From Bdellovibrionales bacterium (GTDB lineage: Bacteria > Bdellovibrionota > Bdellovibrionia > Bdellovibrionales > DASUEL01), in assembly GCA_050250255.1 (NCBI GenBank), contig JBFWOZ010000002.1, forward strand, positions 32,001 through 96,000: a stretch of 64,000 nt of DNA, written 5' to 3'. Below the pieces are notes generated by a model. The model saw only the letters and a program-made list of their open reading frames with translations. It ran no database searches and was not told the DNA's origin. Made by a program: the position numbers and the translations under genes. Every line of letters begins with the position of its first letter. The first letter of the stretch is position 1. This document shows positions 23,520 to 29,089 of the stretch, in pieces.

Positions 23520-24968
23520 TCATGAGATCATCATGCGGCTTAAAATATAGCTTACATATTTATACAAAGGCGATGGATATATTCCAAGCGTAATAACAAA
23601 AATGAGCAGGGAATAGCCGATTATATTGTCTATATAAGATGTTTTGTTTTCTGCAGTGACCTTCGGCGAAAAATCATCGAAGAGTTCACCCAACACACTG
23701 ATCAATGAAATCATAAGTGATGCGGCGCAAATCACCGGCATCAATTGCAGCCAGAGGATTTTTTGTGCCCCTTGTGCCGTCGATACAATTAGAGAAAAGC
23801 CCACAAATGTTCCGAGTGGACTGAAAATGATAAATAGAGCAAAGAGTTGGAGGCGTTGAAAAAAGCTCGCGGCCCTTAACGCAAGGCGTCCGCCATCTGT
23901 GCTTTCAAAAGGTTTCAAATCTAGGGCCATAAAGATTTTCAAAGTGAGTGGCACCGCGATTGTATAAAGAAAAAGTCCCGCCACTCCCTTTAAAAAGGAT
24001 TCTTTTGTTCCCGAAGACAAACTCCATAAAGTGAGGAGGAGGGGCTGAATCGAATAAATTTGAAAAATCTGAGCCATGTTTTTTGCAAACAACGTTTGCA
24101 CGAGCACAAAAGCGGCCATCAACCCGAAAGCGACAACCGGTAAAAGCGTTACGAGAAATCCTTTAAATGGGACGAAGGTGTCGGCCTCCCACGAACCTGC
24201 CATAGAAAGAATCCATCGACAGATCATAATCGCCCCCAGCAACGGAAGCGTCTGGCGGAAAAGCCCAATGAGTGTCCAGCTGTCGGCCTTTTCGTAGTCT
24301 TTTGCAAAGAACGTAAAAACTGGAAAGCAAAGGAGACTGCAAAAAAGAACAAGCGGTGCGCCCCACCCCAAAAGCGAGGTTGTTGTGAACCCTTTTTCCG
24401 AAAGCGCTTTTTGAATTTGATCAAATCGTAGAGTTTGGAGCTCTTGATAAATCAGACCACTTGAAAGCGCAAGAATCAGCAGAACAAGTGCTGCCCACGA
24501 AATTCCGTGGTTCATAGAGATAGATGCTTTCGATTTATAGGCAAGCTGAGGAGCAAAGGCGACCGTCAGGATGAGAAGCGGAAGCGCGAGGGTTACCACA
24601 AGCATATGGTTTGAAAAAATCAAAACCAGCGAGAGAAAGGCGATGACCAACTGAATGGCCGCAAGCTCTCTTTCATAAGAAATACGATCTCGGTAAAGGT
24701 TGAGATGGTTCAACAGAAAATAGATGAGCGTCATCAAAGCGAAGACGAGCTCAGACCCATCAAATGAAAAATAATTTTTTTCAGTAAGAGGAATTTCTAA
24801 TGGGGAAGCGAGGAGAACTATATGTCCTAGATTGAGTAGCAACAAAAGGAGCACAAAAAACTTTTCTCGTTTGCCGAGAGCAATTTCGTTTTGTCGCGAA
24901 ACGGCCATATAGCAGAGCAGGCCTAAGAAAAACGCCATCATTCCAAATCCCTGAGGCCAAAGTGTCAT
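23520..24968 (-). CDS. Highly divergent NuoN-like membrane protein lacking the conserved Glu/Lys residues
   Basis: Colinear with the local NuoN: DGSELV/DGSSYP, IFSNHMLVV/IWANDLLVM, FPVFTFFAKDYEKA/FPFHVWTPDVYQGA, TFVGF/PTVGF, LGIYPSPL/IGVVSSPF. Confidence 0.75.
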   Translation of the reverse strand: MTLWPQGFGMMAFFLGLLCYMAVSRQNEIALGKREKFFVLLLLLLNLGHIVLLASPLEIPLTEKNYFSFDGSELVFALMTLIYFLLNHLNLYRDRISYERELAAIQLVIAFLSLVLIFSNHMLVVTLALPLLILTVAFAPQLAYKSKASISMNHGISWAALVLLILALSSGLIYQELQTLRFDQIQKALSEKGFTTTSLLGWGAPLVLFCSLLCFPVFTFFAKDYEKADSWTLIGLFRQTLPLLGAIMICRWILSMAGSWEADTFVPFKGFLVTLLPVVAFGLMAAFVLVQTLFAKNMAQIFQIYSIQPLLLTLWSLSSGTKESFLKGVAGLFLYTIAVPLTLKIFMALDLKPFESTDGGRLALRAASFFQRLQLFALFIIFSPLGTFVGFSLIVSTAQGAQKILWLQLMPVICAASLMISLISVLGELFDDFSPKVTAENKTSYIDNIIGYSLLIFVITLGIYPSPLYKYVSYILSRMMIS

Positions 24969-24977
24969 ACTTTTCTC

Positions 24978-25982
24978 CTACACCATAAACCGCGCGGCGA
25001 GCGCAAAGAGGATGGACATCAAGAGCTGAACCGACGCCCGAGAGCCCAAAGCGAATGTTTTTATTTGCACTCCTGAGGAAGACTCTGGCGCCGACGGAAG
25101 ATATACGATCCAAGCCATAATACCCACCATGAATACCACCGACGTCCACAACAACGCGCCCACTGTAGATTGAGACGAAGCTAAATAAACGGCCATTAAC
25201 ATACTCCAGAAATATCCGCCCCCAAGAGCACCCACTTCCCAACGGCGAATCAGGCCGCTAAGATTTTTAAATTTTTCTGGAACGATATGAGGAAACAGAG
25301 TGGTCATCGCGGCAAGATAAACCCAAAGAAGCAACACCTCAGGTTTATGCCCTTGGGTGTTGAGAGCCATGACCAGAATACATTGAGTAAAGATGGCCTG
25401 ATGAACTAGCGCCCACGAAATATATTTTTTCAAAAAAATGCTGAGAAGTATCGCCGCCATAGAAAAAAATGAAAATTCATAAGCAAATCGCTCAAAGAGT
25501 TCGTAGTGATAAATATTTAACGACTGAGCGACCGTCCAGAAAATAAAACTTACTCGCAGCCAGGTCTGTTGGAAGACAATGACCTTCTCCAGGCTATCGT
25601 TATGCTGAGGAACTATTGCAAAAAGCAACATTGGTAAAAAACTAAAGGCTAACGAAAGGTAAATTCGATGCTCAATTTGTACGAGCGTGTTGAGGCCAAG
25701 CGCCGGCTGCAACAAGCTCACCGTCACGAGCACCGCCATGACGATCGCGATAATCATTTTCTGTACTCGACCCCTTGTGTAGAAAGAGGTCGCGATAATA
25801 ACCATGAGCGCTTGCACAAGATAAAAAGCAAAATCAAGATAGGCACTATCCGCATACCAAAAAATACCAACACCAGCCCCGATGGCCGCCACCATGAGCA
25901 AGCTCACCCAAAAATGAAGTCCTCTAGCTAGAGCCAATAACCAAATACTTCCAATTCCCAAAACCATCGCCTGAATTGTCAT
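24978..25982 (-). CDS. Multi-TM membrane protein in the NuoM position of the divergent cassette
   Basis: About 334 aa, very hydrophobic; ATGA overlap with the upstream gene. NuoM homology rests mainly on position. Confidence 0.55.
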   Translation of the reverse strand: MTIQAMVLGIGSIWLLALARGLHFWVSLLMVAAIGAGVGIFWYADSAYLDFAFYLVQALMVIIATSFYTRGRVQKMIIAIVMAVLVTVSLLQPALGLNTLVQIEHRIYLSLAFSFLPMLLFAIVPQHNDSLEKVIVFQQTWLRVSFIFWTVAQSLNIYHYELFERFAYEFSFFSMAAILLSIFLKKYISWALVHQAIFTQCILVMALNTQGHKPEVLLLWVYLAAMTTLFPHIVPEKFKNLSGLIRRWEVGALGGGYFWSMLMAVYLASSQSTVGALLWTSVVFMVGIMAWIVYLPSAPESSSGVQIKTFALGSRASVQLLMSILFALAARFMV

Positions 25983-27893: not shown

Positions 27894-27902
27894 TACTCAC
27901 TC

Positions 27903-28772
27903 CTACGTCATAAGCTTCATCCACCACATTCCTGCGAAGCACAAAAATGTAATGGGGTAAATGGTGGCAAGCATGATTTTTTCGAGCTGGTCCCGGCGCA
28001 GAACCGGGAAGTGTTTCCAAAAAATGTCTGTCAAAACATAAAGCAAGAGAACTTTCGAGATTAAAAATATAAAGTGGCTAAGGCCAGGCAGTGCATTGGA
28101 GTTACAAAAAATCATGACAACTAGTGTGAGCCACGTCAGAGAAAATAGATGGTCCACAAACACATCGAGACTAATGAGTTTTTCATTTTTCGAAGAGGAG
28201 CTTTTAAAAAACGTAGCGACAAAAATTCCCAGTAAAAACGCGACAAAATGAAATGGACTCGACAGAAAAAGCCATTCTCTTCCTAAAAAATCATTTAATT
28301 CACCAGGTGTTTGACCTAAGGCGGCTCCTAAAAACAAAATCAGCACAATCAACGCCCGAGTTGTGAAATAAGTGATGTGATCAATCGATGTCTCAGAGAA
28401 TTGTGGTCCCGTTGCTTTCCAAGAGGCAATAATGTGAATGGCACATGAGATGAGCGTTAAAATCATTAAAACGAGATGTGGGTTCTCAACTTGTAAGCCC
28501 CGCTCTCCATTGATCGGGAAAAGTGCTAAACATGTCACCTGCAGCGAAAGCACCACCAAAAACGGCAGATCCCTTTTTATATTCACCCGCAGGCGAGACA
28601 AAAGCAGAAGCCATCTCAAGGGAAGCTGCTGCACTCTGTGAAGACCCGTTTTGGAAAAGCTAAGACGTGGCAAAATAGAAAGACTGAAAAGACTTCTTAG
28701 AAGGGTCATGACCACTAAAAAGAGCACGGCCCAGAGAGTTGGAAAAATGGCAGACAGGGCTGATGACATCAT
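27903..28772 (-). CDS. Divergent NuoH-like membrane protein
   Basis: KVLLLYVLTDIFWKHFPVLRRDQLEKIMLATIYP vs [41 protein letters not shown] vs WGIFFQP. Confidence 0.72.
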   Translation of the reverse strand: MMSSALSAIFPTLWAVLFLVVMTLLRSLFSLSILPRLSFSKTGLHRVQQLPLRWLLLLSRLRVNIKRDLPFLVVLSLQVTCLALFPINGERGLQVENPHLVLMILTLISCAIHIIASWKATGPQFSETSIDHITYFTTRALIVLILFLGAALGQTPGELNDFLGREWLFLSSPFHFVAFLLGIFVATFFKSSSSKNEKLISLDVFVDHLFSLTWLTLVVMIFCNSNALPGLSHFIFLISKVLLLYVLTDIFWKHFPVLRRDQLEKIMLATIYPITFLCFAGMWWMKLMT

Positions 28773-29089
28773 CTCCTTACTCCCAACTCACGGATGAAGT
28801 AAAAAAATGACATAATTGCGGTAATTAAGAAGAGTGTAAAATAGAGCATATCCGTAAAGGCCAACGGCTCCTTTTCCACAATCAACATCAGAAAGGTTGG
28901 AAAAATAAAAAAACTCATCATTCCAACAGCCATAATGAGAAGCGGTGAGTGAAAGGTGCGCTCCCCGCGACTTTCTCGTGATTTTTTTTCGACAATGGCC
29001 GTCGTCCTTTCTGAAAGAAAACGTAAGCTCAGGCTGAAAAGGAGCCAAAAACCCATCGCAATGAAAAAACTAGTAATTATCGAAAACAA
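28769..29089 (-). CDS. Divergent NuoA-like membrane protein
   Basis: 3 TMs; FTDMLYF...FYFIRELG vs FTEMIVF...FYVWRNRG; YECG and FDIE motifs absent. Confidence 0.65.
   Translation of the reverse strand: MFSIITSFFIAMGFWLLFSLSLRFLSERTTAIVEKKSRESRGERTFHSPLLIMAVGMMSFFIFPTFLMLIVEKEPLAFTDMLYFTLFLITAIMSFFYFIRELGVRR

Follow-up and report, generated by a model that had tools for sequence, protein, structure and literature searches.

Seven stripped genes beside the working membrane arm

The stretch analyzed here (the window; 64,000 nucleotides of contig JBFWOZ010000002.1 from a Bdellovibrionales bacterium) carries on its minus strand seven open reading frames for hydrophobic proteins, located between a divergent gene, which we take from its sequence to be mfd, and the working nuoA-H-J-K-L-M-N genes of respiratory complex I (Table 1). 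An earlier note on this DNA had read the seven as a second membrane arm, paralogous to the working one and stripped of its functional residues; we call them ghost genes. Its coordinates and protein sizes and its 47-bp gap to working nuoA were borne out. The ghost genes were tiled with spacings of -10 to +9 bases, and their products were 0.66-0.98 times as long as the working subunits. All frames were open and the three ATGA overlaps described were present, but the ribosome-binding motifs claimed alongside them were not apparent before ghost A and ghost L. None of the seven window ghost proteins reached the Pfam cut-off; the neighboring working genes all (7/7) gave clear Nuo matches. A contig from a public run was identical over positions 16100-29200; it is possibly the source of this DNA and hence not independent.

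Table 1. Genes of the ghost set and their neighbors (window positions unless a contig is given; aa, amino acids; TM, transmembrane helices)
Feature	Coordinates	Strand	Remarks
ghost NuoA	28769..29089	-	106 aa, 3 predicted TM
ghost NuoH	27903..28772	-	289 aa
ghost NuoJ	27498..27893	-	131 aa; NuoJ identity of window protein by position
ghost NuoK	27262..27507	-	81 aa
NuoL-position gene	25979..27265	-	428 aa, 0.67 of working L; assigned by position and size
NuoM-position gene	24978..25982	-	334 aa, 0.66 of working M; assigned mainly by position
ghost NuoN	23520..24968	-	482 aa; C-terminal LGIYPxPLY conserved
working nuoA-H-J-K-L-M-N	16181..23472	-	second paralogue (type 2); 47 bp downstream of ghost cassette
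mfd (presumed)	29146..32661	+	divergent; marks nuo site across phylum
ghost nuoB-C-D-I	G000:C5:86947-89231		directly after working nuoB-CD-E-F-G-I; B 162 aa, C-position 99 aa, D 359 aa, I 156 aa

Residue losses were read from multi-species alignments, in which the working window subunits had their charged residues. In ghost NuoN the Glu/Lys/Lys/His/Lys axis was lost: the TM5 Glu was replaced by Pro130, the TM7 Lys by Leu212 and the TM8 Lys by Pro242, the TM12 Lys was deleted, and no equivalent of E133, K217, K247 or K395 was left. NuoN Lys247 and Lys395 are required for activity in E. coli (PMC13073174). In ghost NuoK the TM2 Glu had become Lys30, a Lys being found at this position in 8 of 13 ghost K sequences, and the second Glu (TM3) had become Phe. 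Ghost NuoA was devoid of the YECG loop and the D-x-E pair, and ghost NuoH of its acidic TM5-6 loop, which was deleted, and of the E-channel acids. The losses originally listed for NuoA (YECG and acidic pair), NuoK (both Glus) and NuoN (TM5 Glu, TM7 Lys and TM12 Lys) were upheld, as was that of the NuoH loop, while the NuoH GPNRV motif, reported as gone, was partly retained as GLHRV. The alignments revealed no charged or polar TM residue common to all ghost families. Judged from these losses, the ghost set is not expected to act as a normal proton pump. For the remaining residue numbers and for the cluster names (N2, N6a and N6b) we use what we take to be the accepted nomenclature.

As a separate observation, Lys30 of ghost K was often paired with an Asp four residues on (Asp34; Lys-x3-Asp), which may possibly form an intramembrane salt bridge.

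In pairwise comparison with the neighboring true subunit, only N exceeded shuffles (z 3.8 and 2.9), i.e., one of the seven cognate pairs. Homology was traced by hhalign along a chain leading from the window protein to a ghost profile of family f14 and from there to the cognate Nuo subunit (reversed-sequence controls, <=5%). For the f14 profiles, the cognate subunit was the best of the seven for A (86%), H (95-97%), J (45%), K (76%) and N (99%), the value for A being obtained against a partly stripped NuoA (an all-ghost A profile gave 73%). The window proteins in turn matched the f14 profiles for H, K and N (90%, 92% and 96% respectively); window A and J gave no hhalign match to these profiles and were tied to their orthologues by position. 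Moreover, a ghost-only H profile found E. coli NuoH in the PDB as its sole match under 0.1 (E 2.5e-4), ghost N scored 97-99% against NuoN sets, and the ghost-N profile recovered ordinary NuoN proteins from other classes (best E 9e-14). By these profiles, ghost A, H, J, K and N are homologous to the matching Nuo subunits via intermediate relatives.

The L- and M-position genes gave no profile signal in the hhalign comparisons. For the L-position protein the AlphaFold2 model failed (pTM 0.26). The M-position model (pTM 0.70) had no Foldseek match at E<=1e-3, its top rows by TM-score or probability being ND2 and ND4 (TM-scores 0.39 and 0.33), and an Atlas feature search gave a lead of 0.89 to Nuo/Mrp antiporter-subunit clusters, which is a lead and not proof; an antiporter-like fold is likely for this protein, on weak support. 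The alignment to true subunits proposed earlier thus stands for A, H, J, K and N, though shown through relatives and, pairwise, beyond shuffles for N only, and was not borne out by the profiles for L, where it had been called weak. M, formerly placed by position only, indeed lacked profile signal and has gained weak fold and feature leads.

The hydrophilic half, its relatives and the origin of the ghost set

A ghost nuoB-C-D-I was found on another contig (C5) of the window's genome (G000) than the membrane cassette, where the ghost B frame opens 1 base inside the working nuoI stop codon. Ghost B, D and I were homologues of NuoB, NuoD and NuoI, with D matching Complex1_49kDa; the C-position gene had no Pfam match and is assigned to NuoC by position. 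All 12 iron-sulfur (Fe-S) Cys were kept, the four of ghost B (N2) and the eight of ghost I (N6a/N6b) each in 14/14 sequences. On the other hand, His38, Tyr87 and Asp139 of NuoD, which form the quinone site (PMC4758237), were kept in 0/14 ghost D sequences: the His loop was deleted, Tyr87 was replaced by Pro, and Asp139 by Trp in 13/14. New residues (Trp at 139 and RILPQ) were fixed in ghost D, and neither an invariant Cys nor an invariant His that could serve a new chemistry was found in it. In terms of gene content, the membrane cassette is one half of an 11-subunit set completed by ghost nuoB-C-D-I. A Mrp/Ech/Hyf/MBH module was rejected as an identity for the set, given the lack of a Proton_antipo_M match, the missing axis residues and a D-like subunit that matches Complex1_49kDa and has no invariant Cys.

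Overlapping ghost nuoI lies a gene (G000:C5:85974-86969; L226:5975-6970, minus strand) for a 331-aa remote homologue of IscS/NifS cysteine desulfurases (PDB profile E 9e-6). Its product apparently lacks the pyridoxal-phosphate lysine motif and is likely a second pseudoenzyme. The gene occurred order-wide, usually near the nuo hydrophilic operon: 120 of 161 genomes matched its profile at E<=0.001, some weak matches being ordinary desulfurases.

At the order level the nuoA region was read in 100 of 154 matched genomes (picked by score, spread and length of contig) and at two further loci. Among these 102 loci, seven had the cassette (families f3, f9 and f12), 89 had mfd directly beside nuoA, and six had neither. 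With extra loci of f1, f3 and f14, 11 cassettes of this class held all seven genes, and the A-H-J-K-L-M-N order read in the window was kept in all of them, which upholds the earlier reading on synteny. A search with ghost N returned seven homologues besides itself, and in a set of 60 relatives ghost N matched three. As for the other half, ghost D was present in 6/6 f14 genomes, and the best ten matches to ghost B among 161 genomes all came from f1, f3 or f12, the membrane cassette being seen in nine of the ten.

The ratio of nonsynonymous to synonymous rates (dN/dS) was estimated by Nei-Gojobori from same-genus pairs of relatives, saturation making several values rough. Ghost B/D/I had a dN/dS of 0.029 (0.019-0.042), compared with 0.013 for working genes. 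For the membrane ghost, dN was 0.16 vs 0.019 for working genes, with saturated synonymous sites and a dN/dS of 0.06 and 0.12 where defined; a second membrane-ghost pair gave 0.10. In family f22 the values were 0.25 (0.18-0.30) for the membrane ghost, 0.10 for ghost B/D/I and 0.047 for working genes, and a full-length stripped copy in f25 gave 0.051. By these rates the ghost genes are under purifying selection in relatives. A pseudogene array, which the earlier note had also argued against, was rejected: 22 seven-gene cassettes tile as open frames, and dN/dS was 0.03-0.25 and not near 1 in the five ghost comparisons with a defined value, although a few f22 ghost B copies did carry stops.

Phylum-level mfd loci, read in 20 of 30 matched genomes, had two nuo sets in tandem beside mfd across the phylum. 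Both sets were intact in f16, f18, f19 and 3/21 f22 loci. The first set of f25 and f31 had full-length genes and included B, C, D and I, but its pump residues were neutralized: Gln stood for the Glu of NuoK, Gln or Arg for the Lys of NuoN, and the axis of NuoM and NuoL was lost. The window's ghosts grouped with this first set (type 1) in a B+D+I tree, in agreement with their separate C and D and short NuoI loop. In f22, which belongs to another class (likely Bacteriovoracia), the second, mfd-distal set was the ghost, and its stripped B-CD-I (fused CD) grouped with the intact type 2 of f22. Both trees were quick searches with long branches; the indels agree with them. Across the 21 f22 loci there were 11 full seven-gene ghosts, one partial ghost, three intact second copies and six loci with none. 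The trees and indels indicate that in the window's class the first (mfd-proximal) copy became the ghost or was lost. Since the first copy was stripped in the window's class and the second in f22, ghosting arose at least twice, once per paralogue. Splits of the operon left each ghost half next to its working counterpart.

Several loci of relatives departed from these patterns. i) One f18 locus (G273, L204:4572-10167) had a partly stripped H-J-K-L-M-N near mfd, and the 18 kb read there contained no intact nuo set adjoining it. ii) An f22 genome without a membrane ghost at the mfd site (G268) held a remnant (L276:3-4283) comprising a fusion resembling E/F, a short piece of G, a gene weakly similar to B and a frame of 481 aa. 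iii) A NuoF match was found in 0/5 ghost-bearing and 2/5 ghost-less f22 genomes; for the eight of ten without it (G175, G249, G225, G343, G218, G238, G479 and G264) the lack of a match suggests that their working complex I is likely an 11-subunit enzyme with another electron donor. iv) G281 and G320 (L221, L223, L312 and L313) had NuoF and a second nuoB and no second membrane arm after the first at the mfd site, a hint that one membrane arm can serve more than one peripheral arm. v) In G042 (L260:1-3542) the normally working CD-F-G-I genes that precede the ghost set were themselves diverged (F 361 aa, 71 bits), with another nuoD on a different contig; both native nuo sets may be decaying there.

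What the ghost set may do

Synteny, homology and substitution rates together indicate that these predatory-type bacteria have a real, selected, 11-subunit pseudo-complex I that evolved more than once. The conserved, non-pumping paralogous arm originally proposed is backed by its synteny, by the homology of A, H, J, K and N and by purifying selection in relatives. As to its role, we tentatively favor a reading in which the seven genes encode the membrane half of a stripped 11-subunit complex I copy, kept as a co-assembled, non-catalytic partner of working complex I. Such a partnership would proceed as follows: i) both ghost halves would be co-transcribed with the working halves, as the 47 bp before nuoA and the start of ghost B within the nuoI stop suggest; ii) the 11 products would form a particle shaped like complex I, with its membrane arm sealed and with the N2, N6a and N6b clusters in place; iii) each of the two paralogous complexes would come to need the other in order to assemble or be stable, and either one could then go without catalysis but not simply disappear from the genome; iv) distal subunits would shrink and drop first, with whole loss where the working enzyme no longer needs its partner. 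We judge a co-assembled partner most likely because it would account both for the persistence of a dead copy, whichever of the two paralogues it stems from, and for the linkage of each half to its working partner. It needs no sharing of NuoEFG, as the ghost-bearing f22 genomes have no NuoF match. A wider version, which we regard as doubtful, is a two-complex respiratory machine in Bdellovibrionota, in which one whole complex would be a pseudoenzyme with a live Fe-S wire to buffer, route or sense electrons on behalf of the working twin; the dead role could fall to either paralogue, and the arrangement would have evolved at least twice.

Several observations weigh against the partner reading. 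Most relatives (89/102 order-level loci) live without the cassette at the mfd site. The membrane ghosts are 13-30% identical between families, which is low for a fixed interface, vs 44-72% for working subunits. In three f8 genomes ghost B-D(-I) is present and no cassette adjoins mfd or nuoA, and a fixed pairing of the halves is further challenged by a genome (G029; 83% complete) that has the cassette and no nuoB match. One f14 genome is without ghost L and one f22 genome without ghost M and N, and in f22 some copies of ghost B lack Cys or are interrupted by stops. The dN/dS pairs include none of the window's own (G000) genes. Finally, we know of no bacterial complex I heterodimer.

The main rival, which we consider unlikely, is a stand-alone, membrane-anchored Fe-S relay or sensor, in which electrons from ferredoxin or NuoEFG would enter N6a/N6b/N2 and either go on to a non-quinone acceptor or be read as a signal, and the membrane arm would serve only as an anchor. 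It would account for the far stronger constraint on ghost B/D/I than on the membrane ghost (0.029 vs about 0.1), for the 12 invariant Cys and the newly fixed residues of ghost D (Trp139 and RILPQ), and for the f8 genomes without a cassette at the site, and MBS shows that a NuoD-like subunit can switch its substrate (PMC8165549). However, the kept Cys are no proof of electron flow because B and I need their clusters to fold; moreover ghost D has neither Cys nor His as an invariant residue on which new chemistry could be built, and two different paralogues would need to reach the same new role.

Slow decay, in which a redundant isozyme would first have been closed to leaking protons and later trimmed, selection doing no more than keeping its products folded and harmless and avoiding polar effects in the operon, appears improbable. 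The graded series from intact to stripped, shrunken and lost, the distal loss of L or M and N, a dN about five- to tenfold above that of working genes and the f25 swaps (Glu to Gln, Lys to Gln/Arg) would fit it. On the other hand, most relatives took the easy way out by deletion, yet 11 and 11 seven-gene cassettes (in the window's class and f22) stayed open at under 30% identity. Polarity cannot protect the f22 membrane ghost or any ghost B-C-D-I because these lie downstream of the working genes, and a dN/dS of 0.03 would seem too low for toxicity avoidance alone.

An assembly scaffold, kept from the functions first suggested, is about as improbable, if not slightly more so: here the ghosts would act for a time, while the working enzyme is being assembled, as placeholders or Fe-S carriers, and would be absent from the mature particle. 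Operonic coupling to the working halves, a fold kept with its chemistry lost, and the IscS-like gene that follows ghost I are in its favor. But that gene is order-wide rather than ghost-specific, the full 11-subunit set in ancestral order exceeds the needs of a placeholder, and most relatives assemble complex I without ghosts.

The remaining readings, an uncoupled NADH:quinone bypass, an inhibitor decoy or a repurposed transporter or channel, are very improbable in spite of the intact Fe-S ligands, about 50 retained predicted TM helices and the recurrent Lys-x3-Asp pair of ghost K: neither a bypass nor a Q-site decoy fits, because both need the quinone site (PMC4758237) that ghost D has lost, membrane-arm mutations block rather than uncouple complex I catalysis (PMC9802314), and a transporter or channel has no polar TM residue common to the ghost families to work with.

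Relation to known systems

Single-subunit pseudo-paralogues, such as the assembly factor NDUFAF2, and pseudoenzyme partners are dead paralogues kept for structure or assembly; the ghost differs in being a whole multi-subunit pseudoenzyme that has arisen from either paralogue. With the 11-subunit complex I-like enzymes (NuoA-D and H-N; NDH-1, Fpo core) it shares the same 11 gene types, the absence of an own NuoEFG and the N2/N6a/N6b ligands; unlike them it has neither the quinone-site His/Tyr/Asp nor the charged membrane axis, and its proteins at the L and M positions are shorter by a third. Second complex I isozymes, with two paralogous sets per genome and sometimes one nuoEFG for both, occur in Geobacter, Rhodobacter and Syntrophobacter (PMC4453560); two sets per genome are likely the ancestral state of the ghost system as well. 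Those isozymes were treated as working and found by standard searches, whereas the ghost membrane genes have no Pfam match or catalytic residues. MBS/MBH (PMC8165549) and the Sulfolobus-type Nuo (PMC4758237) combine, as the ghost does, a complex I-like frame with a non-canonical NuoD site, but MBS/MBH keep ion-translocating modules and a defined substrate, and the ghost keeps neither.

In Bdellovibrionota, nuoAHJKLMN was placed at one chromosomal site across the phylum and a second full set was described in Peredibacter (PMC13147790); the text available of that paper reads the latter as a horizontal gain and mentions no stripped copy, and that of PMC12361115 does not mention Bdellovibrio. Like the earlier note, which knew of no such system, our search of full-text literature found no description of a ghost complex; supplements lay outside it (e.g., PMC4758237 Fig. 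S2, which draws Bdellovibrio nuo clusters) and most subscription papers were not covered.

A whole respiratory complex kept as a pseudoenzyme thus appears to be undescribed. The phylum offers, for both paralogues, a graded natural series (intact, full-length neutralized, shrunken and lost) that may separate complex I residues needed for structure from those needed for coupling, and that would provide a clean test of entrenchment against new function in a multi-subunit machine. Furthermore, whole complexes can go unnoticed within blocks of "hypothetical" membrane genes.

The remaining neighbors in the window (10189-16143 and 29146-36725) are, as we take them to be from inspection by eye, DksA/TraR-like, Lon protease, patatin-like, Mfd, glycoside hydrolase 3-like and short-chain dehydrogenase genes.

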